In this document: positions 2,371-46,808 of the stretch, piece after piece
How positions within the stretch are numbered: position 1 is the first letter of the stretch
How the letters are laid out: each line of letters begins with the position of its first letter
DNA from: a virus
Taxonomy: Duplodnaviria; Caudoviricetes
DNA length: 59,321 nucleotides
IMG/VR virus record: IMGVR_UViG_3300037882_001894
Span: 1 to 59,321 of that record
Direction: 5' to 3' (one strand)
Position numbers and translations under genes: made by a program
Notes under the pieces: generated by a model
Seen by the model: the letters and a program-made list of their open reading frames with translations, nothing else
What the model was told of the DNA's origin: nothing
The model's database searches: none

Positions 2371-4755
2371 ATGCAACTAGAACATATAATTTTATCAGCT
2401 TTAATTCACGACGAAACATTTACTAGAAAAGTATTACCATTTTTAAAAGATGAATATTTTTCTAGTGCCGCTGATAAAAATGTATTTTTGATTATAAGTA
2501 AACACTTTAATACATATAATTGTTCCCCTACCACTGAAGCTATCGCAATTGATGCTGTTAATCTGGAAGGGTTGACAGCACCTTTAGCGAAAGAAATAGA
2601 ATCTACTATTAATAAATTAGTAGAGGTTGACTATAATCTTGATTGGCTTATTGATTCTTCGGAAAAATTTTGTAAGGAACGAGCGGTATATCTCGCAATT
2701 GTAGAAGCTATTGAAATACAAGATGGTAACACTAAAAAAACTGTTTCTGCGATCCCAGATATTTTATCTAAAGCATTATCTGTGTCTTTTGACTCTAATG
2801 TCGGTCTAGATTATATTTTATCTGCTGAACAACGGTATGATGATTTCAACAAGACTGAATTAGATAAAATACCTTTTGGTCTGCATTATCTGGATAAAAT
2901 TACTAAAAATGGTTTTGGTAAGAAAACACTTAACCTGATCGTTGCCGCAGCCTCGACTGGTAAAGAACAGCCAATATCAGAACCAGTATTAACACCCAAT
3001 GGGTGGTCTACTATGGGTCAACTGCGTCCTGGTGACTATGTGATTGGTTCTGCTGGACTACCTATTGAAGTATTATCTATCCATCCGCAAGGAATAAAAG
3101 ATGTATATACAGTAGAAACGCAGGATGGGGTGAAGATCCGATGTGGTAAAGATCATTTATGGTCTGTTTATAGTTCATCTAGGATAAATGGAAAAAATGG
3201 TCAAAAATTATTTACTAAAACTACACAGGAACTTATAGATGGTGGTGTACGAAAACTAGATACCACACCAAGATTTACTTTACCAGAATTTGGTGGTGTA
3301 CAATATGGGATAAGTATTGGTTATGCTTATGCACTAGGATATTGCTTAGGTAATGGTTGTTTTAGTAGCAGTCAATTACTAGTTTCATATCATACTAAAG
3401 ATACATCTCAGATTTTGTCTTTATTGTGTAAATCATTGGGTACACCTACTCGCAATAGTATTGTTGGTGAGTTTGGTGGTCAATCTGCCTATAGTTGGGG
3501 AAAACTAGATCCAGAAATTGCTAAATATCGAAATAGTGGATTATCTCATGAAAAATCTTTACACCAAGATCATAAAAACTGGTTGTCTTGGGATTATGAT
3601 TCTAGATTAGAATTATTAAAGGGTTTATTAGATAGTGATGGTTGTATAAGTACATATAAAACTAAAAATTCTTTTAGTTCTACTTCTACCAATCTTTTGA
3701 TTTTAGTAAGAGATTTGATTAGGTCTTTAGGTGGGCGATCTGGAGAAATTCATCAAACGTCTCTTAGTGATAATTGTAAGTTTGATTATTTTGGCGCACT
3801 TTATTTTAGGATGCCCTTATGTCCATTTGAATTGAAGCAGGAACGATGGAAAAAATCTTGCTATAACATGCGTTCATCAATAAGTAGCATCACCAAAGAA
3901 GTTTACCAAGAGGAACAAGTATGTATTACAGTAGATGCACCAGATCACTTATATGTTACTACTGGGTTTAAACTTACCCACAACAGTATACTATTATGTC
4001 ATCATGCAGCACATTCTTTATCTATAGGTAAAAATGTGTTGTTCATCACCTTAGAAATGTCTGCTAATGCCATTAGTGAACGTATTGATGCTAATTTATT
4101 AGATGTAAACATTGATGATCTTTATACTAATGGTAAAGAGCATTATATGAGTAGATTTAAGAAGTTGCAAGCAAAAACTTATGGTAAATTGTATATAAAA
4201 GAGTATCCAATTAGTACAGCACATGTGGGCAATTTCACTGCCTTATTAGATGAGTTGAAAGCCAAAAAGCAGTTTGTTCCTGATATTATTGTGATTGATT
4301 ATTTGAATATTTGTGCTAGCGCAACCAACAGTACAAACAGTAATTCTTATGAGCGAGTAAAACAGATTGGTGAGCAATTGAGATCATTAGCACAAATCAA
4401 TGATGTACCGATTTTATCAGCGATCCAATTGAATAGGTCTGGGGTGGGCAATAACGATCCTGATATGTCTAATTTGGCTGATAGCTACGCACTAGGGATG
4501 GTAGCAGACTTTATTATGGCATTGGTGTCCAATGAGGCATTAGCTAGCTTAGAGCAGATTCTCTGCGTACAGATTAAAAATAGATACAGTAATATCTCAG
4601 TCAATAACAAATTTGTGTTAGGATTAGATAAGTCGCGTATGAAATTCTATGATGTAGAAGATAATTACACAGATGAGAAAAATATTACTAATGAATCTAC
4701 TGTGACATTAGTAACCAAAAAAAGACCACAACTATCATCATTCCTAACAGATTAA
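2371..4755 (+). CDS. gp41: Replicative DnaB-like helicase with intein
   Basis: RKVLPFLKDEYF, Walker A STGK/S, ITLEMS...I.ERIDANL, IDYLNICAS, QLNRSG, KNRY. Confidence 0.95.
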   Translation: MQLEHIILSALIHDETFTRKVLPFLKDEYFSSAADKNVFLIISKHFNTYNCSPTTEAIAIDAVNLEGLTAPLAKEIESTINKLVEVDYNLDWLIDSSEKFCKERAVYLAIVEAIEIQDGNTKKTVSAIPDILSKALSVSFDSNVGLDYILSAEQRYDDFNKTELDKIPFGLHYLDKITKNGFGKKTLNLIVAAASTGKEQPISEPVLTPNGWSTMGQLRPGDYVIGSAGLPIEVLSIHPQGIKDVYTVETQDGVKIRCGKDHLWSVYSSSRINGKNGQKLFTKTTQELIDGGVRKLDTTPRFTLPEFGGVQYGISIGYAYALGYCLGNGCFSSSQLLVSYHTKDTSQILSLLCKSLGTPTRNSIVGEFGGQSAYSWGKLDPEIAKYRNSGLSHEKSLHQDHKNWLSWDYDSRLELLKGLLDSDGCISTYKTKNSFSSTSTNLLILVRDLIRSLGGRSGEIHQTSLSDNCKFDYFGALYFRMPLCPFELKQERWKKSCYNMRSSISSITKEVYQEEQVCITVDAPDHLYVTTGFKLTHNSILLCHHAAHSLSIGKNVLFITLEMSANAISERIDANLLDVNIDDLYTNGKEHYMSRFKKLQAKTYGKLYIKEYPISTAHVGNFTALLDELKAKKQFVPDIIVIDYLNICASATNSTNSNSYERVKQIGEQLRSLAQINDVPILSAIQLNRSGVGNNDPDMSNLADSYALGMVADFIMALVSNEALASLEQILCVQIKNRYSNISVNNKFVLGLDKSRMKFYDVEDNYTDEKNITNESTVTLVTKKRPQLSSFLTD
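2965..3984 (+). mobile_element. Class-3-type intein (340 aa) with LAGLIDADG domain in the helicase P-loop
   Basis: GK|EQPISEPVLTPNGW ... DHLW ... LGYCLGNG ... LKGLLDSDG ... VCITVD...THN|S. Confidence 0.9.
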
Positions 4756-11893: not shown

Positions 11894-11932
11894 TTTTTGT
11901 GCTATAATAAAAACCTATTAATTTGTAACTAC

Positions 11933-12634
11933 ATGTTCCATTGTAACGACAGTACCAATACATATTCCTTTGATCTACCTAACCACAATATTGATAAAAA
12001 TAGCAAGAAAAAACTAACACACAATCAATTATTCGTAGATAATAAACTACACGTATTAAACGTCATCACTGGTGAACTATATACCAATACCATTGATCTC
12101 TCTGCTGTACCACTACTAAAACAATATAATTTTGGTGTAGATAATAATGGTAGATTTGAAACAAGATCAAATGACAAAACTACATTTATACATGAACTAA
12201 TATGCAATCTCAAAACTAATAAGAATTGGGTGATTAATCATATAGATGGTGATCCCACAAACAACCAAAGATCAAATCTAGAATTAGTAACACAATGGTT
12301 CAACATTGCATTAATGAAAACTACTAATTCTTTGCCATTTGGTATAAAACATCATAATAATGGTAGTAGTTTTGTAACAGCAATTAATTTACCAACAATA
12401 AATCAAAAGATAACTTTTTGTTCGCTATTAACAGATTATCTCCAAAATATCCATTATCAGTTTGGGACTAAATCTGGTTTGGTGTCTCCACAAAGATATT
12501 TGAAAGAGACACCAAATTGGTTGCCAGACAACACTATAATCTTTACAGAAGCACATCAAGAAAAGCTAGATATGCTGATAGCAGAACATCTAGAGAATCA
12601 AGCAAAGTGGGATAAACCAGAATCAATATATTAG
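11933..12634 (+). mobile_element. HNH homing-endonuclease family, copy 1
   Basis: WVINHIDGDPTNNQRSNLELVT..FN; ATG 11933 aligns with the other copies. Confidence 0.85.
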
Positions 12635-12690: not shown

Positions 12691-13347
12691 ATGTCCAAAG
12701 TAGCGTTCGTAGTAACTGATTTAGAAACTTTATCAACTCATGTAGCAATCGCACCTATTTTATCGATTGGTGCAGCAGTATTGGGGGTAGTTAATACTGA
12801 GGAAGGAAACTGGGTTGATGAATTACATTATAAAGGTTTCCATGAGATTGTAAATTATCCAGAACAATTGAAATTTGACAAATTTGTTAGTAAAACTACA
12901 TTAGATTGGTGGGAGAACCAAAATGATGATGCTAAGAAGTTGTTAGAAACATCTAGAACCACCAGCAATAATTTAGTACAATCTCTAATTTCTCTCTGTG
13001 GTTGGATCAACTCTATCAAAGCTGATCATGTAGTAGTATTGGGATATGGATCTAATTTTGATAACGCGATATTAGAAATAAACTATCAGGAGTATGGAAT
13101 TCCAATCCCTTGGGAATACAGGAATTCTTTATGCTTGAGAACTATTTTGAATCTATATACTCCTGTGGAAGAAGAAAATTCTATTGAAGCTGTAAAAAAA
13201 GAAGCAGCAATTTATACTAAATTCATTTTACAAGAAGAATTTTGTAAACACAATGCACTACATGATGCTGTGTACGAATCAGCCAAAGCAAGAATCATGT
13301 TTCCTTTACCATTTTGGTTAACAATCGCTAGACACATTATCAAATAA
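12691..13347 (+). CDS. DEDDh 3'-5' exonuclease (DexA / exonuclease VIII-like)
   Basis: TDLETLS, ILSIGA, TLDWW..Q, GSNFDNAIL, HNALHDA. Confidence 0.85.
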   Translation: MSKVAFVVTDLETLSTHVAIAPILSIGAAVLGVVNTEEGNWVDELHYKGFHEIVNYPEQLKFDKFVSKTTLDWWENQNDDAKKLLETSRTTSNNLVQSLISLCGWINSIKADHVVVLGYGSNFDNAILEINYQEYGIPIPWEYRNSLCLRTILNLYTPVEEENSIEAVKKEAAIYTKFILQEEFCKHNALHDAVYESAKARIMFPLPFWLTIARHIIK

Positions 13348-13350
13348 AAT

Positions 13351-15210
13351 ATGTTAGTACAAAAACGGGACGGATCTAAAGAACCATTAAATATCGATAA
13401 AATCCATCGGATGCTTGAATTAGCTTGTGATGGACTAGATGTATCCATGTCTTTAATTGAGACAACCAGCAAACTACAATTTTATGATGGTGTTACTACA
13501 AAATACATTCAAAATGTATTAATCGGTGCCACGAATAAACTTATTGATCTCGATACACCGGATTATCAATATGTGGCAGCAAGATTGTTGTTATTCGGAT
13601 TGTATAAAGATTTATACCCAAATTGGCAGACATATGGGTTGGGTTCCTTGTATCAACATCTCACTAGATTTAAAGACAAGTACGATGATGTTCTATATAA
13701 TGCTTACACCAAAGAAGAATGGGATGTCTTAGATACAGTAATAAATCATTACAAAGACTACAAATTTACTTATGTATCGTTACAGCAATTATTAGATAAA
13801 TATCTCATTCAAGATCGTGCTACTGGATTTATTTACGAAACTCCACAGTATGCTTACATGAATATTGCTGCTATGGTGTTTAGTAGTTATCCACCAGACA
13901 TCAGATTAGATAAAGTTATTGATTACTATCATGCTATTTCCAATCATGAGATTAATCTACCAACTCCGATTATGGCTGGTGTGAGAACTAAGCAAAAATC
14001 CTACGCTTCATGCGCCTTGTTGGATTTACAAGATAATATACAAAGTATTGGTGCTACTAATGCTGCTATTGGGATGCTTACTGCTGCCTCATCTGGTATT
14101 GGTTTAAATGTTGGCAGAATGCGTAGTATTGGTTCTAGTATTAGAAATGGTACTGTAATCCATCCTGGTATTGTACCATTCCTGAAAATATTTGAAGCTA
14201 CTGGTAAAGCCTTCAGCCAAGCAAATCGTGGTGGGAAAGTTACAGTATATGTTCCAATTTGGAATTACGAAATTGAGGACATTATCAGATTAAAAAATAA
14301 TCGGGGTACAGAAGAAAGTTCGGTAAGACATTTAGATTATTGTATTCAATTGTCTGGGATATTCTATAAACGGTTTTTGAATAACGAACCTATTACGTTA
14401 TTCTCCACTGATGATGTACCTGGATTATATGAGGCATTTGGTACAGATAAATTTGATGAATTGTATATGCATTATGAGAAACAAGACATCCGTAAGAAGA
14501 GTGTCTTAATGCAAAAATTATTCTTGGATTTGGTGGAAGAACGGTCTGGTACAGCAAGAATCTATATCATGAATATAGATCACGCTAATACGCACTCACC
14601 ATATGAAGAAACCGTTTGTATGTCAAATCTTTGTGTTGCACCAGAGACATTATTGCTCACTGATAAAGGATACATCCCTATTGGTGAACTACAGGATAAA
14701 CCAGTTACCATTTGGAATGGTGAAGAGTGGTCTAATACAATTGTACGAAAAACTGGTGTTAATCAAAAACTGATAAAAATTAGCTTTAAAGATCAAAACG
14801 CAAATGTTCACATAATTGAATGCACACCATACCACAAATTTAAAGTTCAATTAGAAAGATTTGTAGTAGAAGTACGTGCGGCATATTTGAAACGGGGTGA
14901 TAAAATACAAAATTATTGTCATCCAGAATTTGAACTTAAAGTCAAGAATCATCAAGACTGGTTAGTATATGATGTAGAGGATAATAATAGATATGATAAT
15001 ACATATTGTTTGACAGAACCAAAAAGAAATACGATGGTGTTGAATGGTGTACTCGCTGGTAACTGTGTCGAAATTATCCAACCTTCTCGACCTCTGAATG
15101 ATATAAATGATACTGGTGTGTATCAATACAAGGTAGCAGTCAAAAAAGACCGAATACATGAATTTGTGTCATTAAAAAACAATAATAAATTTTTGGAGTT
15201 CAAACCTTAA
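13351..15210 (+). CDS. nrdA: Class Ia ribonucleotide reductase alpha, N-terminal fragment (NrdA-a), with mini-intein
   Basis: ATP cone VQKRDG, YETPQ, PTPIMAG.RT, ASC (C225 equivalent), SNL[intein]CVEI (N437/C439/E441 equivalents); stops before the C462 equivalent. Confidence 0.93.
   Translation: MLVQKRDGSKEPLNIDKIHRMLELACDGLDVSMSLIETTSKLQFYDGVTTKYIQNVLIGATNKLIDLDTPDYQYVAARLLLFGLYKDLYPNWQTYGLGSLYQHLTRFKDKYDDVLYNAYTKEEWDVLDTVINHYKDYKFTYVSLQQLLDKYLIQDRATGFIYETPQYAYMNIAAMVFSSYPPDIRLDKVIDYYHAISNHEINLPTPIMAGVRTKQKSYASCALLDLQDNIQSIGATNAAIGMLTAASSGIGLNVGRMRSIGSSIRNGTVIHPGIVPFLKIFEATGKAFSQANRGGKVTVYVPIWNYEIEDIIRLKNNRGTEESSVRHLDYCIQLSGIFYKRFLNNEPITLFSTDDVPGLYEAFGTDKFDELYMHYEKQDIRKKSVLMQKLFLDLVEERSGTARIYIMNIDHANTHSPYEETVCMSNLCVAPETLLLTDKGYIPIGELQDKPVTIWNGEEWSNTIVRKTGVNQKLIKISFKDQNANVHIIECTPYHKFKVQLERFVVEVRAAYLKRGDKIQNYCHPEFELKVKNHQDWLVYDVEDNNRYDNTYCLTEPKRNTMVLNGVLAGNCVEIIQPSRPLNDINDTGVYQYKVAVKKDRIHEFVSLKNNNKFLEFKP
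14632..15063 (+). mobile_element. Mini-intein (144 aa, no endonuclease) at the thiyl-radical cysteine of NrdA
   Basis: SNL|CVAPETLLLTDKG ... ECTPYHKF ... TYCLTEP...VLNGVLAGN|CVEI. Confidence 0.92.
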
Positions 15211-15211
15211 T

Positions 15212-16183
15212 ATGTACGATCAACTTTTTAGAATTTTACAAGACGGCGATGCAGTATTAGACAATGAAATATTAGTAGAGAATGTTTCAATCATTGATCG
15301 CGAACCGCCTAATATTAGTAGCTGTATCTTAGGTGCCATCTCCTGGGATAAATTATCTGGTGATATGGACAAAAACTTTATTATCTTGAAACGATTATGT
15401 ATGTTAGAGATTGAATCTTTGAATAATATAATTGATCTCCAAGAATATAAAATTCCGTCTACGGAGATTGCTACCAGATGTGGCAGATATTTGGGAGTAG
15501 GGATTAATGGATTTGCTACATTTGCGGCTAGATTGGGGTTGACCTATAATGATCCAGAATTGTGGCAGATCACACATGATATTGCTGAGATGCAGATGTT
15601 TTTGTTGATGTCTGCTTCAAACAAATTAGCAAAAGATGTTGGTGAGTGCCAGTGGTTTTATAAGACAAAATATGCTAATGGTATTTTGCCAATCGATACT
15701 TATAAAAAGGCAGTTGATGAAATAGTTCCCAATGCCCTCAAAATGGACTGGGAAGGCTTGAGAAAATCAATTTATATGTATGGACTCAGAAACAGTGCTT
15801 TCGCGGCTGTAATGCCCGTACAGAGTTCATCTGTGATTAGTAACAGCACCAATGGGATTGAACTACCTCGCTCACCATTAACCATCATCAAATCTAAAAA
15901 TGGATTACTGAGACAGATTGTAAAAGATTTTGATAAATTGGAAGATAATTATACATATGCATGGGAGAAACCAACCAACAAAGGATACATCAATATCTGT
16001 GCAGTCATTCAGAAATTTTTCGATCAAAGTATATCAGCAAATGCATATTATGATCCATCATGGTATGGTGGTACTGTACCAATTTCCGTGATGACAGAGG
16101 ATATTTTGTATGCTTACAAAATGGGACTGAAGACACTATATTATTGCAATACTAACGATAATAGAGACGATATGGAGACTTGA
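15212..16183 (+). CDS. nrdA: Ribonucleotide reductase alpha, second fragment (NrdA-b)
   Basis: ISSCILGAI (C462 equivalent), LGVGING.A, GLRNS...A.MP..SSS.ISNSTNGIE, QKFFDQSISAN, GLKTLYY; no C-terminal CxxC. Confidence 0.93.
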   Translation: MYDQLFRILQDGDAVLDNEILVENVSIIDREPPNISSCILGAISWDKLSGDMDKNFIILKRLCMLEIESLNNIIDLQEYKIPSTEIATRCGRYLGVGINGFATFAARLGLTYNDPELWQITHDIAEMQMFLLMSASNKLAKDVGECQWFYKTKYANGILPIDTYKKAVDEIVPNALKMDWEGLRKSIYMYGLRNSAFAAVMPVQSSSVISNSTNGIELPRSPLTIIKSKNGLLRQIVKDFDKLEDNYTYAWEKPTNKGYINICAVIQKFFDQSISANAYYDPSWYGGTVPISVMTEDILYAYKMGLKTLYYCNTNDNRDDMET

Positions 16184-16208
16184 CAATTAGTTAGTGGTGA
16201 ACTATAAT
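16180..16208 (+). promoter_or_regulatory. Consensus sigma70 promoter overlapping the nrdA-b stop, with a late TAAATA at 16208-16213
   Basis: TTGACA-17nt-TATAAT; inverted repeat ttagtggtgaa (16191) / ttcaccactaa (16216). Confidence 0.8.
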
Positions 16209-16236
16209 AAATACATTCACCACTAATATAAAATAT

Positions 16237-16410
16237 ATGCAAGAATTGCTAACTGAAATTTTGCCAGATAAAGTAGAACCGCCACAGCCACAACTATTGA
16301 CTGAAGTTCTCCCTGTAACAGAATTTGAACTGAAAACAAAACCAAAACGAACACGAACATATAATTTAGAAATTGTCAATGATGGCGGTTGCTCTGCTTG
16401 CTCTTGTTAG
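16237..16410 (+). CDS. 57-aa peptide, putative stand-alone NrdA C-terminal CxxC tail (NrdA-c); not in ORF track
   Basis: MQELLTEILPDKVEPPQPQLLTEVLPVTEFELKTKPKRTRTYNLEIVNDGGCSACSC; own promoter and terminator. Confidence 0.75.
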   Translation: MQELLTEILPDKVEPPQPQLLTEVLPVTEFELKTKPKRTRTYNLEIVNDGGCSACSC

Positions 16411-16421
16411 CATAAAACCAT

Positions 16422-16455
16422 AAAACAATGCTCTCAGTCAGAGAGCATTGTTTTT
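16422..16455 (+). terminator. Rho-independent terminator
   Basis: aaaacaatgctctc-agtca-gagagcattgtttt. Confidence 0.85.
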
Positions 16456-16477
16456 CAACAGAATAATATAATAAATA

Positions 16478-18547
16478 ATGTCAGTAATAAACACAAATTC
16501 AAATATAGATTTTACAAAAGAACCGCAATTTTTTGGCGAAACTTTGGGAATTCAGCGATATGACCAGTATAAATATCCAGCATTACATCAGTTATACAAA
16601 ACACAAAAAAATTATTATTGGTCGCCTTCTGAAATATCCCTACAGAAAGACAGAGGCGATTATTCAACATTAACTGCTAATGAAAAGTTTATCTATACTT
16701 CTAATTTAAAATATCAAATTTTATTAGATAGTATTCAATCTCGATCTACAAGTTTAGCATTTTTGCCATTTGTATCTTTACCAGAACTGGAAAAGAACAT
16801 CATCGTTTGGAGTTTCTTTGAAACTATCCATAGTGAATCCTATACTCATATTATTGAAAATGTATATAGTGAACCATCCACTGTGTTTGATCACATATTA
16901 AACGATGTGGAAATTATTAAACGTTCCAATAGTGTTACAAAATATTACGATGAATTTATTAAACTTTCCTCAGCTTATTATAACAATGATATTGTTAAAG
17001 AATTAGTAAATGATAATAATCTCACTGCCAGATCTCTATTATTAGATTTGAAGCGGTCATTGTACCTATCAATGGTGAATGTTAATATTTTAGAAGGTAT
17101 TAGATTTTATACTTCTTTTGCTTGTTCATTCGCATTTGCTGAAAATAGTAAAATGATCGGTTCAGCAGACATTATATCATTGATTGCTAGAGATGAAGCT
17201 TGTTACACACCAGCACACGAATGTTTAACACAATCTGGATGGAAATATATTAAAAATGTAACATTAGATGATAAAGTATTGCAATTTAATAGTAACAATA
17301 CTGTGGAATTTGTAAACCCCACAGACATAATAACTAAAAAATACCAAGATGAACTATATCATTTTTATGATGATCATGATACTTTTGAGCAGATAGTCAC
17401 TAAAGATCATCGAATGATTTGGCGAGATCTTACTAATGGTAGGTTGCGAGAATCCACCGCCGAAAATACAGCTTTTACAACTAGTTATAAAGCTGTAATT
17501 TTGAGTGGGTTGTTATTGGAAGGGGAAATCGAGATTTCCCCAATTGAAATATTAAACATATTTTTTGAATATTGTGGTAGAGTAATGGCGGTATCTGGTG
17601 ATAATCTTGATCTACAAATGACATTAAAAAATGTTGATTGGTGGCGGATACTTGGTGCAGCTTTGACTAAATTAGGGATCTCCTATGATTATAAAGTTAA
17701 CTATAAAACTAGTGTATACACAGTAACATTAACTGTACCAACTATTACACTAAAGAAATATTTTGGTTGGGTAGATATTAAAGGCAAATCCACTATATGG
17801 GCACAGAATGTAATAAAACTTTGTCGCATACTAAGCAACAATATTAATTATACTACACATACCGAACCAAAGTTTAAATTTTATGTTAATAATGCAGCAT
17901 CATTATTAAAAATTCAGGAATTGTTTGCTATTTCTTATTGGAAGATACGTGCTTCAAAACACTACAAGATCAATCATGGACATACTATCACTGTAGATAC
18001 TAGCAGAAATCATGTCAAAACAAATAATATCCAAATTAAAAAAATACAATATTCTGGATTAGTGCATTGTTTGACAGTACCATCTGGTGCATTTTTAGTC
18101 CGACATAATGGTAAAGTATCAGTTGGTGGTAATTGTCATCGTAGACTGAGCGAAACTGTTATAAAAAATTGGCAGAATGGCGACGATCCTGATTTTACTG
18201 ATATCATTAAAGAAGAAGAATTGACCGTCTATGATATGTTTAGAACTGCTGTAGATGAAGAAATTGCTTGGGCGAATCATTTATTCAAGGACGGTAGTGT
18301 ATTAGGATTGAATGCAGAAATTTTGACTCAATATATCAAATTTACTGCTAATCAAAGATTAAAATCTCTTAATCTTAAACCATTGTTTCCTGATATTAGT
18401 AAGAAAAATCCAATCCCCTGGATCGATAATTATCTAAAATCTTCAAATATATCTGTTGCCCCAATGGAGACTGAGATCATATCGTATATGATTGGTAACG
18501 TTGTTCGTGACGTAGCGGAAAATCAATTTGCTAATTTTGAATTATGA
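16478..18547 (+). CDS. nrdB: Class Ia ribonucleotide reductase beta subunit with intein
   Basis: WSPSEISL, LLDSIQ, ETIHSESY, LEGIRFYTSFAC, RDEA/CH, APMETEI.SY. Confidence 0.95.
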   Translation: MSVINTNSNIDFTKEPQFFGETLGIQRYDQYKYPALHQLYKTQKNYYWSPSEISLQKDRGDYSTLTANEKFIYTSNLKYQILLDSIQSRSTSLAFLPFVSLPELEKNIIVWSFFETIHSESYTHIIENVYSEPSTVFDHILNDVEIIKRSNSVTKYYDEFIKLSSAYYNNDIVKELVNDNNLTARSLLLDLKRSLYLSMVNVNILEGIRFYTSFACSFAFAENSKMIGSADIISLIARDEACYTPAHECLTQSGWKYIKNVTLDDKVLQFNSNNTVEFVNPTDIITKKYQDELYHFYDDHDTFEQIVTKDHRMIWRDLTNGRLRESTAENTAFTTSYKAVILSGLLLEGEIEISPIEILNIFFEYCGRVMAVSGDNLDLQMTLKNVDWWRILGAALTKLGISYDYKVNYKTSVYTVTLTVPTITLKKYFGWVDIKGKSTIWAQNVIKLCRILSNNINYTTHTEPKFKFYVNNAASLLKIQELFAISYWKIRASKHYKINHGHTITVDTSRNHVKTNNIQIKKIQYSGLVHCLTVPSGAFLVRHNGKVSVGGNCHRRLSETVIKNWQNGDDPDFTDIIKEEELTVYDMFRTAVDEEIAWANHLFKDGSVLGLNAEILTQYIKFTANQRLKSLNLKPLFPDISKKNPIPWIDNYLKSSNISVAPMETEIISYMIGNVVRDVAENQFANFEL
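17201..18133 (+). mobile_element. Intein (311 aa) in NrdB, endonuclease apparently degenerate
   Basis: RDEA|CYTPAHECLTQSGW ... VTKDHRM ... VHCLTVPSGAFLVRHNGKVSVGGN|CH. Confidence 0.9.
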
Positions 18548-19239
18548 TCCATTATAACGACAGCACCAATCTACATTCTTTCGATCTCCCCAATCACAAT
18601 GTTACTAAATCCACTAATACTATAAAAACATATAATCAATTATTCGTAGATAATAAACTACACGTACTAAACACCATCACTGGTCATTTCTATACCAGCA
18701 CTATCGATATTTCTGCTGTACCACTACTAAAACAATATAATTTTGGTGTAGATAGTGCTGGTAGATTTAAAACATGGATAAATAGAAAAACTACATACAT
18801 ATACGAACTAATATGCAATATTAAAACTAATAAGAATTGGGTGATCAATCATATAGATGGTGATTCTAACAACAACCAAAGAGCAAATCTAGAATTAGTA
18901 ACAAATTGGTTCAATACTGCATTGAAGAAAACTACTAATTCTTTACCATTAGGTATGACCCATCATGGTACTAGTTTTAAAACACAAATTTGTCTACCAA
19001 CTACCACACAAAAGATAACTTTTTGTTCGCTATCAACAGATTATCTCCAAAATATCCATTATCAATTTGGTACTAAATCTGGATTAGTATCTCCAGCAAG
19101 ATATTTACAATCCACACCAAATTGTTTGCCTGACAACAGCATAATATTTAAACCAGCACATCAAGAAAAGTTAGATGTGCTGGTGAGAGAGCATCTAGAG
19201 AATCAAGCAAAATGGAATAAACCTACTCCAATATATTGA
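18544..19239 (+). mobile_element. HNH homing-endonuclease family, copy 2
   Basis: MIHYNDSTN... WVINHIDGDSNNNQRANLELVTNWFN; ATGA overlap with nrdB stop. Confidence 0.85.
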
Positions 19240-19268
19240 TTGACTCTAGCATTAATATATGATATAAT
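19240..19268 (+). promoter_or_regulatory. Sigma70-type promoter directly after HNH copy 2
   Basis: TTGACT-17nt-TATAAT. Confidence 0.75.
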
Positions 19269-19315
19269 TAGTAGTAACAAACTTAAAATCGGATAAAAAA
19301 ATATCTACCATCATT

Positions 19316-19474
19316 ATGATATTAGCTGCATCTGATGTATCATCATATCAATATGCTGCATTAGACTTGTTGGAATGCAGACCGGATAAGATTGAATTAA
19401 TCTCAGTAGTTTGTGGTATTTTGTATAATAAAGAACTTGATCAGTACATAAAGGATAGATTATTAGTGTTATAG
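19316..19474 (+). CDS. Small hypothetical protein (52 aa, not in ORF track)
   Basis: MILAASDVSSYQYAALDLLECRPDKIELISVVCGILYNKELDQYIKDRLLVL downstream of the promoter. Confidence 0.4.
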   Translation: MILAASDVSSYQYAALDLLECRPDKIELISVVCGILYNKELDQYIKDRLLVL

Positions 19475-19504
19475 CTAAATATTTAATATACTTTATGGAA
19501 GAAA

Positions 19505-43623: not shown

Positions 43624-46077
43624 ATGGTAGTAAAGATGCTACTGCTACTGATGATCAATCCTAATTTTTCCACCACCAACAACCTAAACGAAAATAACTA
43701 TTATTTTGGAGTAATTGAATCTGTAAATGATCCGTTGGGTTTGCATCGGGTAAAGTGTAGAATCATTGGTGTCCACAACGACAATAGAAAGTTATTAACT
43801 ACTAATGATTTGCCTTGGTCATTGGTGGCCAACCCAACTGATGGCACTGGTAAGCATACTTTGAAACCAGGGAATTTTGTAGTGTGCGTATTTGTCGATC
43901 AGGATCTACAACAGCCTGTAGTTCTTTATACTCTATTCAGCAAGATAAAAACCAACAATATTAAATTTAATAGTATCGACGATGTTAGATCTCCTGGTAC
44001 AGTATTCTTAACCAACAACACCAGCAAAATTCCAGACCAAATCATATATGATGGTAAATTAGCAAATGAGATAGTGGCAAAATCCCAATTAATTGCTGAT
44101 ATTGGTAATCCATATGGGCGGAATACCAACACACCGACAGCAAATGGTAAATCTGGTGGAGTAGGTATATTTGAGGATATTCAGCGTGAGATTGTATCGT
44201 TAGCGAATATCTTTAAGTATGTAGAATTGTATGATACTGATGATATTACATTGTCTGAGGATATTGATGAAGGTGTTGGGTTTATACCATTATCCAGAGT
44301 AGAGAGTATACCTAGATCTGGTATTATTAAAATTGATAATGAATTTATCACATATAATGGGATAGCTGACACAGGATTGTCTGGACAAATCATGCGTGGA
44401 TCTCCAGATCGCGGTGAAATAGTACCATCATTTAATGCTACACATACTAAGGGAACATCAGTACAATGGATCTATCCAATCGTTAAGAATGATAATGCAC
44501 CGTTATTTTATAGTAAACTGACTGGACAAGCAATTAATTTTGGCAAAGAGATCAAAAAAAAAATGTCAGTCATTTCTGGATACATTACCTGGATTACCTC
44601 ACAAATATCAGCGCAAATCACAAAATTATTAAGTGAACTAATATCCAACATCACACTAGTATTAAAATCACCAATAGCAATAACTGGTAAACTGATAGTA
44701 GATGCTTTATTGCTAATTTTGTCTCAAGTATTGTGTGCGTTTAATAAATCTACTGTTGACAGCTTAGTAGATGTGATTGAGAATTATATTACAGAGCAAT
44801 TGATGGGTGTGGTGAAGATGTTTTATGCTGCTGGGGGTGCTGTAACAGATTTTATAACTAATTGTAGTAATAAAATATTTGATGCTATCTTACAATTTTC
44901 CAGCATTATACAATCGGTTGGTACCATTATCAATGCTGTGACCGCTACAAAATTTCCTACAGCATCCTCTTTCAATATATCTGATGGTGATGGTGGGTTG
45001 TCAATGGAATCTATTACATCAGCAGCACCGATTGTTGGTAATTTATTAAATTTATTAGGTTTGGGTTGTCGGACAGATGTTGGTGAGAATAAGATCACTT
45101 ATACTGATAACAATGGTACTACTTGTACTACTAATGGTTACTTCCCTGATGCTATATTATGTGCGCCAAATCCAGATATAATTGGTGAATTGAACAATCT
45201 GTATCGACCGTTACCAGCATTTATTACATCTTATGATTTCGGTGGTGGATTGAAGATAGAGCAAGATAACACGCCTGGTACAGAGCGTACACTAATCCAG
45301 TCACCAGCAGGTACATATACTGAAGTTTTTAATGATGGCACCAGCAAGACTGTTATCACGAAAGATAATTATACACTCATTCTAAATGATAATTTTGTAG
45401 AAATTAAAGGTGCTGCTTATTTCAAGGTAGATGGTGATTTTGGGTTAAAAGTGTCAGGTAACATGGATATTGAAGTAGGCAAAGAATTGAGAATGAATAT
45501 TGGCGGAGCATCAAAGATCACTTACGGAGGTTCGCATAATACTAATTATAATAATGATGCTATTATTAATGCCACTAATAAATTGTCGATCACTGGTGCC
45601 CAAATAGGTTTATCGGGTAGTGGATCAGTAGATATCGCTGGTGGCGTATTTACTACTGTAGTAAATGAAGCAAATATCACTTCACTTGGATCGTTATCAT
45701 TGTTGTCGTTATACAGCAATCATGTTAGTACGTTATCACACAAAGAGATCCACAGCGGATCTGTTGACAAATTAGTATTAGGTACTGAGAAAACTATTAA
45801 TTTGTCCACACATACAGCAGATTATATTGGTGCTAGAACAGAGAATCATAGTAGTATACTGACCACCAATGTCTCTGGTATACACAACGTAACTAATAAC
45901 AGCGTATACAATGTTTCTTCAAAGTTAAAAGTAGAAAATGTATCAGAATTATTACAATTGACTACAAAACTCACTGTGAATAACAGTCAAACTACGACAA
46001 ATAATGTTAGTGGTAGTTATTTTACTTATGCTGGTGGGATCAATGTTCGTTCTTCTTCTGCAAACTTTGACAGTTGA
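43624..46077 (+). CDS. gp5: Baseplate central spike / hub protein (no lysozyme domain seen)
   Basis: OB fold GVIESVNDPLGLHRVKCRIIGVH..LPW; EQDNTPGTER...AGTYTE; beta-helix repeats; start may be 43651. Confidence 0.85.
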   Translation: MVVKMLLLLMINPNFSTTNNLNENNYYFGVIESVNDPLGLHRVKCRIIGVHNDNRKLLTTNDLPWSLVANPTDGTGKHTLKPGNFVVCVFVDQDLQQPVVLYTLFSKIKTNNIKFNSIDDVRSPGTVFLTNNTSKIPDQIIYDGKLANEIVAKSQLIADIGNPYGRNTNTPTANGKSGGVGIFEDIQREIVSLANIFKYVELYDTDDITLSEDIDEGVGFIPLSRVESIPRSGIIKIDNEFITYNGIADTGLSGQIMRGSPDRGEIVPSFNATHTKGTSVQWIYPIVKNDNAPLFYSKLTGQAINFGKEIKKKMSVISGYITWITSQISAQITKLLSELISNITLVLKSPIAITGKLIVDALLLILSQVLCAFNKSTVDSLVDVIENYITEQLMGVVKMFYAAGGAVTDFITNCSNKIFDAILQFSSIIQSVGTIINAVTATKFPTASSFNISDGDGGLSMESITSAAPIVGNLLNLLGLGCRTDVGENKITYTDNNGTTCTTNGYFPDAILCAPNPDIIGELNNLYRPLPAFITSYDFGGGLKIEQDNTPGTERTLIQSPAGTYTEVFNDGTSKTVITKDNYTLILNDNFVEIKGAAYFKVDGDFGLKVSGNMDIEVGKELRMNIGGASKITYGGSHNTNYNNDAIINATNKLSITGAQIGLSGSGSVDIAGGVFTTVVNEANITSLGSLSLLSLYSNHVSTLSHKEIHSGSVDKLVLGTEKTINLSTHTADYIGARTENHSSILTTNVSGIHNVTNNSVYNVSSKLKVENVSELLQLTTKLTVNNSQTTTNNVSGSYFTYAGGINVRSSSANFDS

Positions 46078-46095
46078 TGATATGTGTGTTATACT
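46067..46095 (+). promoter_or_regulatory. Sigma70-type promoter for HNH copy 5
   Basis: TTGACA-17nt-TATACT with TG. Confidence 0.7.
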
Positions 46096-46118
46096 GGATA
46101 TATAATATTTGTTGCATT

Positions 46119-46808
46119 ATGATCCACTATAACGACAGCACTAATACATATTTCTTCGATCTACCTAATCATAATGTAGACAACAGTAGAAAATTAACAT
46201 ACAATCAGTTATTTGTAGACAATAAACTACACGTACTAAACACCATCACTGGTGATCTTTATACCAACACTATTGATCTCTCTGCTGTATCACTACTAAA
46301 ACAATATAATTTTGGTGTAGATGATAATGGTAGATTTCGTACCCAGCTAAATAGAAAAACTATATTCATATATGAACTGGTGTGTAATACCAAAACCAAC
46401 AGGAATTGGGTAATTAATCATATAGATGGCGATCCTAGTAACAACCAAAGATCAAATCTAGAATTAGTAACACATTGGTTCAATACGGTATTACAAAAAA
46501 CTACCAACTCTCTGCCATTGGGTATAAAACATAATGATAATAGTTTTCTAACACAAATTTGTTTACCTACTATCGACCAAAAGATAAATTTTTGCTCACT
46601 TTCAATAGATTATTTACAAAACATCCATTATCAGTTTGGTATCAAATCCAAATTAGTATCTTCAGCAAGATATTTGGAAGCTACACCAAATTGGTTGCCA
46701 GACAACAGCATAATATTTAAACCAGATCATCAAGAAAAGCTAGATATGCTGATCTCAGAGCATCTAACAAATCAAGCAAAGTGGAATAAACCTGAACCAA
46801 TATATTGA
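46119..46808 (+). mobile_element. HNH homing-endonuclease family, copy 5
   Basis: MIHYNDSTN... NHIDGDPSNNQRSNL. Confidence 0.85.

Follow-up and report, generated by a model that had tools for sequence, protein, structure and literature searches.

A candidate separately encoded cysteine tail in a fragmented phage class I ribonucleotide reductase

Introduction

In the published descriptions cited here, the large subunit NrdA of class I ribonucleotide reductases (RNRs) carries a pair of cysteines at its C-terminus that reduces the active-site disulfide and is then itself reduced by thioredoxin or glutaredoxin (PMC4078304, PMC5704485). Enzymes without these cysteines are reported to be active with dithiothreitol but not with phosphines, which are said to act like redoxins via the tail (PMC4078304). 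The subject of this paper is a small open reading frame (ORF) of 57 amino acids (aa) that lies between the genes nrdA-b and nrdB on a 59.3-kb fragment of a phage genome, virus record IMGVR_UViG_3300037882_001894 (the whole fragment is hereafter called the window; its CheckV completeness estimate is 31%), and that may encode such a cysteine tail as a protein in its own right.

Two systems described previously provide the background to this proposal. In NrdJa/NrdJb, the arrangement of the Pseudomonas aeruginosa type, a C-terminal module carrying the redox cysteines is specified by a separate gene beside the catalytic gene, according to the accounts in PMC5704485 and PMC9669993. In Aeromonas phage Aeh1, insertion of mobE gave rise to NrdA-a and NrdA-b, two fragments that are described as being rejoined non-covalently by short extra tails, themselves a product of the insertion (PMC3045599).

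Sequence comparison of the window with related loci supports the view that the small ORF is a genuine, conserved gene for a separately encoded NrdA cysteine tail. The original prediction, made from the letters of the window alone, had proposed such a gene, and all of its coordinates proved correct, including those of the ORF (16237..16410) and of the TGA at 16198 that blocks its frame upstream.

A small ORF between nrdA-b and nrdB

The nrd block of the window is laid out as follows.

13351..15210, + strand: nrdA-a, 619 aa; ATP-cone, all-alpha domain and first half of the barrel (Pfam PF03477, PF00317 and PF02867 positions 1-213)
14632-15063, within nrdA-a: mini-intein of 144 aa (aa 428-571), directly 5′ of the catalytic cysteine; the C-extein is aa 572-619
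15212..16183, + strand: nrdA-b, 323 aa; second half of the barrel (Pfam PF02867 positions 223-522)
16180..16208, + strand: sigma-70-type promoter, TTGACA-17-TATAAT, 12/12 consensus matches
16191-16201 and 16216-16226, no strand assigned: perfect 11-bp inverted repeat enclosing the -10 hexamer
16237..16410, + strand: small ORF, 57 aa; two (E/Q)LLTE(I/V)LP motifs, a basic patch, then ...NLEIVNDGGCSACSC
16422..16454, no strand assigned: palindromic, terminator-like hairpin between the small ORF and nrdB; 14-bp stem, 5-nt loop
16478..18547, + strand: nrdB, 689 aa; intein-sized insert, with Pfam PF00268 in two stretches

The small ORF begins 53 nt 3′ of nrdA-b, in a different frame, and its product has the C-terminus ...EIVNDGGCSACSC. 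The last six residues, C-S-A-C-S-C, form a C-x2-C-x-C arrangement, and there are three cysteines in the 57 aa. A cysteine pair two to four residues apart and one or two residues from the C-terminus is thus present, as expected of an NrdA tail; covalent continuity with the barrel beyond its tyrosine pair (YY) is absent, both in the window and in the second phage described below. The TGA at 16198-16200 closes the frame upstream and leaves a stop-to-stop open segment of 16201..16407, for whose 69 stop-free codons base composition gives a chance of 0.004.

The window contains 1464 stop-to-stop segments, just nine of which, the small ORF included, terminate in C-x(2-4)-C-x(1-2). When these segments were scored with a profile of 185 unique fused tails, the small ORF ranked first with 8.3 bits, the next segment scoring 4.0. 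The duplication of the (E/Q)LLTE(I/V)LP motif, claimed in the original prediction, is real: across seven codons the two copies show two identical, four synonymous and one non-synonymous, and so differ mostly synonymously. A looser version of the motif (L-[LIV]-x-[EDQN]-[LIVM]-[LIVME], here termed LLTE-like) occurs in 35 of the 185 fused tails, four to eight residues before the first cysteine, and is enriched approximately 37-fold by comparison with protein bodies, which makes it an element native to tails. The free peptide carries the motif twice, at a greater distance from the cysteines than in the fused tails. The ORF has no Shine-Dalgarno site, but this is uninformative because only four of the 51 long ORFs of this phage have one.

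NrdA-b ends without a cysteine pair

The product of nrdA-b has the C-terminus ...YYCNTNDNRDDMET, followed by a TGA stop at 16181-16183, and lacks a terminal cysteine pair. It aligns with residues 452-741 of the 761 residues of Escherichia coli NrdA and stops two residues further on (at ~743), indicating that the ~20 last residues are missing; both the sequence itself and this alignment bear out the earlier claim that the protein is tail-less. In a 44-sequence alignment C38 (the barrel cysteine), Y310 and Y311 of NrdA-b are invariant, and the terminus lies 12 residues beyond the YY pair.

Three sets of relatives were inspected. A terminal cysteine pair is present in 146 of the 150 best library matches to NrdA-b (111 identified by regular expression, three as adjacent CC and 32 by eye), with the remaining four being fragments that end before the YY region or lack it. 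Eighty metagenome loci aligned by NrdA-b were fetched, and all 79 with a complete C-terminus have ends of the C-x2-C-x-[ILV] type; the other locus (L076) runs off its contig. Fused tails are found too in 76 (70 + 6) of 80 viral loci fetched with P0004, a protein 86% identical to NrdA-b. The four exceptions, L082-L085, represent one phage in four metagenomes, and this phage has the small ORF. Judged by these sequences, the missing tail of NrdA-b is unusual among its relatives.

The nearest relatives of NrdA-b extend past ...DDMET or ...DEMEE into short fused tails. That of P0004 reads ...CRLENKEGCEACNV and ends in ...NNCRLENKEGCEACNV, whilst P0002, which is 78% identical to NrdA-b, has a fused CEAC tail, ...CNLENKDCEACNL, with the end ...LACNLENKDCEACNL. 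Read by eye, the small-ORF ends ...YNLEIVNDGGCSACSC and ...TYNLEIVNDGGCSACSC resemble the P0004 and P0002 tails. Homology between NrdA-b and P0004 breaks off exactly at the start of the -35 hexamer.

Conservation in a second phage

A profile search with the small ORF identified three further distinct homologues, giving a family of four distinct versions of 55-64 aa. The three are as follows.

P0152: the 57-aa ORF of L082, MPEQHPELLTEILPSHPLPIPQPELLTEVLSTSPHKRKYCTPMIINDDTESCESCNV; found on 11 contigs
P0153: 55 aa; end CDGCNV
P0154: 64 aa; end CSGCSC, as in the window

The end of P0152 is CESCNV. Each of the four versions has the LLTE(I/V)L-type motif twice, together with a PQP linker, a basic patch and a terminal C-x2-C, and the positions that are invariant in their alignment are M1, ELLTE, L9, P10, PQP, L21, E23, V24, I46, C52 and C55.

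The layout of L082-L085 is that of the window, with a tail-less nrdA-b followed by the 57-aa ORF, a hairpin and nrdB. In L082, NrdA-a is 1046 aa long, with two intein-sized inserts, and NrdA-b is 323 aa long, ending ...GRDDYE without a cysteine pair; a 63-nt spacer separates nrdA-b from the ORF. The hairpin stands at the equivalent site but has another sequence (-21.6 kcal/mol, z -4.4). The nrdA-b / small ORF / nrdB order that the original prediction suggested looking for in related contigs therefore does recur, and with homologues that keep the cysteines its claim of a separate small gene with a cysteine tail is upheld. Between the window and L082 the proportions of non-synonymous (pN) and synonymous (pS) differences in the small ORF are 0.37 and 0.66, and in nrdA-b synonymous sites are saturated (pS 0.79). 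The two motif blocks can be aligned between the two phages but the intergenic DNA cannot.

Beyond these four versions, the profile found no homologue in the other ~155 fetched loci, which carry fused tails. A tblastn search of 50,697 phage records with the peptide gave no match, neither Pfam nor PHROGs contains a family for it, a sequence search of the PDB returned only chance matches (E ≥ 3) and the ESM Atlas no usable match. Viral contigs searched with NrdA-b or P0002 as query yielded no related loci.

Independent DNA across the junction

To examine the junction in DNA from other sources, Logan contigs of four runs were compared with positions 15700-16900 of the window. A 7,734-nt contig from another study (run X4, depth 63), ~92% identical to the window, is collinear with it over 15701-16353 and 16422-16900. 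Among the differences listed for this contig there is no indel at the end of nrdA-b, and at least two fall within 16151-16236 (16188 and 16214), neither of them in a hexamer or a repeat arm. Within the ORF the listed differences comprise at least four synonymous changes, at least three codon positions with an amino-acid change and a net 3-nt in-frame deletion. Window positions 16354-16421, the last 19 codons and the stop, are swapped for 66 unlike letters between like flanks, and the redox end of the small ORF is for this reason considered mosaic. A 151-nt piece from run X1 (16202-16350) differs from the window at two letters; 2 nt are also inserted in its leader, ahead of the ATG.

Because the X4 and X1 DNA bridge or match the region independently, misassembly is excluded. 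An indel or misassembly fusing the ORF to nrdA-b had been named as grounds for rejecting the original prediction, and none was seen at the junction among the differences listed for the X4 contig. Nor could any single indel fuse the two frames, since the nrdA-b stop (16181) precedes the blocking TGA (16198).

Promoter, inverted repeat and hairpin

The consensus promoter and the fully complementary 11-bp inverted repeat claimed for the region upstream of the ORF are both present. Sites matching TTGACW-N17-TATAAT number five in the window, all on the + strand, compared with 0.06 expected from shuffled sequences. The -35 hexamer at 16180 shares letters with the end of nrdA-b, namely its last sense codon and TGA stop, and the differences listed for the X4 relative include none inside either hexamer. 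The RNA of 16150-16260 is predicted to fold with -16.6 kcal/mol (z -2.5). Of six promoter sites folded (10889, 12636, 16180, 19240, 46809 and 59281), the one at 16180 has the strongest predicted fold. Only transcripts that read through from nrdA-b can form the 16191-16226 hairpin.

Downstream of the ORF, where a terminator had been claimed, there is a strong hairpin at 16422-16454 (-19.3 kcal/mol, z -8.0); in a pattern scan it is listed as terminator-like on the - strand alone. The proposed late promoter word AATAAATA finds no support, its 17 occurrences in the window matching the 17.7 expected by chance. An 11-nt word, TATAATAAATA, occurs twice, at 16203..16213 in the -10 region and at 16467..16477 directly before the nrdB ATG; its AATAAATA core is at chance frequency.

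Proposed function and alternative explanations

The enzyme keeps its catalytic residues, so that an active-site disulfide should be formed at every turnover, and re-reduction of the active site is the task of the C-terminal pair in class I enzymes, which is why we read the 57-aa product as a shuttle in trans. The yeast enzyme offers a parallel, in that a tail belonging to one subunit is able to act on its neighbour. Our preferred explanation, to which we would give a probability of roughly 0.6, is that the peptide is a separately translated tail that acts in trans as an electron shuttle. The large subunit would then be made as NrdA-a (after intein splicing), NrdA-b and the small tail protein. 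The peptide would be translated alone from its own ATG, in this phage from an early-type promoter of its own and in the second phage probably after co-transcription. It would bind the NrdA-a/NrdA-b body non-covalently, most likely via the duplicated LLTE(I/V)L motifs, and after each turnover its terminal C-x2-C would take electrons from thioredoxin or glutaredoxin and hand them to the disulfide of the active site, as the tethered tail does in ordinary class I enzymes. Short tails can hold RNR fragments together, as the description of Aeh1 indicates (PMC3045599). A predicted complex of the NrdA-a N-extein and C-extein, NrdA-b and the peptide scored 0.11 against a mark of 0.32 and carries no weight either way.

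Several observations weigh against this explanation. The tail-profile E-value of the small ORF over the 1464 segments is 0.36, which is not significant alone; its rank is telling nonetheless because the ORF sits directly behind a tail-less gene, and the identification of the ORF as a tail rests on rank, position and conservation. The two proteins nearest to the window's NrdA-b, P0004 and P0002, keep fused tails. In a phylogenetic tree these two and the split forms of the window and L082 make up one clade (support 100/100), but inside it the fused and split forms are not ordered, and hence neither the direction nor the number of split events can be read. P0002 and the small-ORF homologue P0154 both come from Logan/ENA sequences whose longest contig is 4,850 nt, and they may share a contig, in which case fused and free tails coexist. 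Such an arrangement would fit duplication followed by loss of the tethered copy, but might equally mean that the small protein does more than replace the tail, or something other. A search of 4,441 candidates found no longer protein with a fused, doubled LLTEILP tail that would account for the N-terminal half of the peptide, although this negative is weak evidence. No thioredoxin or glutaredoxin gene was recognised in either phage fragment (31% and 59% complete). Finally, no consensus promoter is found upstream of the ORF on the + strand of L082 (5300-5850). The proposal that the ORF is independently transcribed thus holds for the window and, among the differences listed, for its 92% relative, and fails for L082; from these sequences, separate transcription by way of promoter and hairpin can plausibly be proposed for this phage, though not as something that its relatives conserve.

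A more specific scenario, which we consider doubtful, places a free "micro-tail", a CxxC peptide of 55-64 aa with duplicated docking motifs that serves the enzyme in trans, in a clade of large freshwater myoviruses, arising by duplication of the tail and loss of the tethered copy while some relatives still have both forms, with re-reduction timed separately by means of its own promoter and terminator. Were this true, the supply of deoxyribonucleoside triphosphates (dNTPs) would become a separately timed step of infection in this phage.

Could the small protein instead be an accessory or regulator that merely resembles a tail? It might be an extra free tail, or a decoy for a redoxin or for the docking site of the phage or host enzyme, that tunes dNTP synthesis. 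The possible shared contig of P0002, with its fused CEAC tail, and P0154 would suit this role, as would the strong promoter and hairpin of the window, which allow separate control, and the mosaic redox end, whose last 19 codons are replaced in the 92% relative. We nevertheless think it unlikely: the NrdA-b proteins of the window and L082, with no cysteine pair of their own, need a tail from elsewhere if they work with physiological redoxins, and the C-terminal register of the ORF is exactly that found in real tails. Less credible still is the idea that the ORF is a leftover in decay, from the time when a promoter cassette cut off the tail of an enzyme that is now reduced by other means or is defective. 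The abrupt end of P0004 homology at the -35 hexamer is what an insertion or replacement would produce, and promoter plus stem-loop resembles the promoter and stem-loop elements (PeSLs) described for T4-like phages (PMC4122927). A relic would hardly survive, though, as four intact versions of 55-64 aa with invariant cysteines and motifs across saturated synonymous divergence, nor would it be expected to retain 69 stop-free codons (chance 0.004) or to suffer an indel that is in frame in the 92% relative.

Translational bypass of the T4 gene 60 kind, with take-off from the ACT at 16178-16180 and landing on the ACT at 16222-16224 or 16201-16203, would join the ORF to nrdA-b in a single polypeptide. 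The matched ACT codons, the stop directly after the take-off codon and the hairpin in between are all reminiscent of it, and such cassettes are reported to travel with Mob endonucleases in related phages (bioRxiv 10.1101/2022.08.31.505936). The combination of conserved matched codons and a hairpin is nevertheless not found here: the last sense codon of the L082 nrdA-b is GAA and there is no GAA in the open frame upstream of its ORF ATG, whilst in the window the take-off codon lies outside the hairpin, which begins 8 nt past the stop. Moreover, all four homologues start with Met, and one matched codon among ~12 upstream codons is not rare by chance, making bypass very improbable. For a window that is a single metagenomic contig, it was worth asking whether errors of assembly or sequencing had split an otherwise normal nrdA at its 3′ end, but an artefact of this kind hardly merits belief when no single indel fuses the frames, an independent contig of depth 63 is collinear across the junction, the layout is found in four further metagenomes and the L082-type ORF protein is present on 11 contigs.

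Three other routes by which the ORF might be joined to nrdA-b were rejected. Read-through of the nrdA-b stop would meet a TAA in the same frame at 16205, and a -1 or +1 frameshift into the ORF is blocked by the TGA at 16198. A group I or group II intron is rejected on the grounds that the 53-nt gap is far too small and no Rfam intron was found; a search of 13000-19500 against Rfam at E ≤ 1 detected no intron or known RNA, with two chance-level matches only.

The a/b split and other features of the window

The split between nrdA-a and nrdA-b lies inside the barrel, with PF02867 positions 1-213 encoded by the one gene and 223-522 by its neighbour. With the last nucleotide of the nrdA-a stop at 15210 and the first of the nrdA-b ATG at 15212, the two genes are 1 nt apart and have no endonuclease gene between them; in L082 the corresponding gap is 51 nt. 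There are extra ends at the split, ~30 C-terminal residues on NrdA-a and ~27 N-terminal residues of NrdA-b that do not align with E. coli NrdA, and these may, like the short tails of Aeh1, serve in assembly. Insertions have invaded the nrd genes heavily: in addition to the NrdA mini-intein, whose junctions fall between ...MSNL and CVAPETL... and between ...LAGN and CVEIIQP, there is the intein-sized insert in NrdB, and nrdA-a of L082 (1278..4418 region) has two inserts.

HNH genes flank the nrd block but stay outside it (11897..12634 and 18544..19239). Together with a third at 46074..46808 they make up a set of three similar HNH endonuclease genes (231-245 aa), each followed 1-2 nt 3′ by a TTGACT-17-TATAAT promoter (12636, 19240 and 46809) and each having a similar 3′ end, ...CAATATATT(A/G), before that promoter. 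This looks like a repeated endonuclease-plus-promoter cassette. Elsewhere the window encodes a DnaB-like helicase, a primase and myovirus-type baseplate and tail-fibre genes. The helicase (2371..4755, 794 aa) has matches to "terminase large subunit" PHROGs inside it, at residues ~175-544, which may represent another intein or an inserted domain.

Comparison with known systems

The original prediction held that no RNR built this way had been described. For class I enzymes this stands, in that we found no report of a separately encoded tail in a search of the literature outside subscription journals, and the name "NrdA-c" has no occurrences in the literature searched. More broadly it does not, given the class II precedent of NrdJa/NrdJb. 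Like the small ORF as interpreted here, NrdJb-type genes are described as separately encoding a module with a redox cysteine pair for re-reduction of the active site. There, however, the enzyme is class II and B12-dependent, and the detached part is, in the descriptions available, a domain of 150-220 aa that is folded, rich in cysteines and of the zinc-finger type. The window, by contrast, has a class I NrdA/NrdB enzyme, with an ATP-cone and E. coli NrdA as best match, and a 55-64 aa peptide with two or three cysteines and no Pfam match.

Aeh1 resembles the window in having a phage class I nrdA fragmented within the barrel, whereas the nrdA of Aeromonas phage Ah1 is unsplit. The published description of Aeh1 deals with two pieces and, in the parts cited, mentions no detached redox tail, which is what the third piece in the window would be. 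Aeh1 also has mobE between its pieces, whereas in the window no endonuclease gene separates any of them (1 nt and 53 nt). Compared with fused class I NrdA tails and those of eukaryotic R1, the likeness lies in a terminal C-x2-C or C-x4-C, one or two residues short of the end, after an acidic or hydrophobic stretch; the differences are that the candidate tail of the window is not covalently attached and that it has the duplicated LLTE(I/V)L motif and basic patch, both absent from the P0002 and P0004 tails. The early-type promoter and stem-loop at a homology break between relatives recall PeSLs as these are described in PMC4122927; at 16180 the hairpin differs in enclosing the -10 hexamer, and no repeated family of such a cassette emerged in the window.

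For annotation, the lesson is that the absence of the tail from an nrdA gene in a phage contig is no sure sign of a defect, and that gene calls should take in small ORFs in the interval from nrdA to nrdB. The class I tail is described as disordered (PMC9669993) and is usually studied by way of whole-subunit mutants; a natural separate tail would allow measurement, with native components, of the way in which the tail reaches the active site, the residues responsible for its docking and the redoxin that reduces it. NrdJa/NrdJb is the nearest precedent for this arrangement and Aeh1 the nearest class I precedent for fragmentation. With the small ORF as its third part, the enzyme of the window would extend genes in pieces from a two-piece to a three-piece phage enzyme and would give class I a parallel to the split NrdJa/NrdJb of class II.

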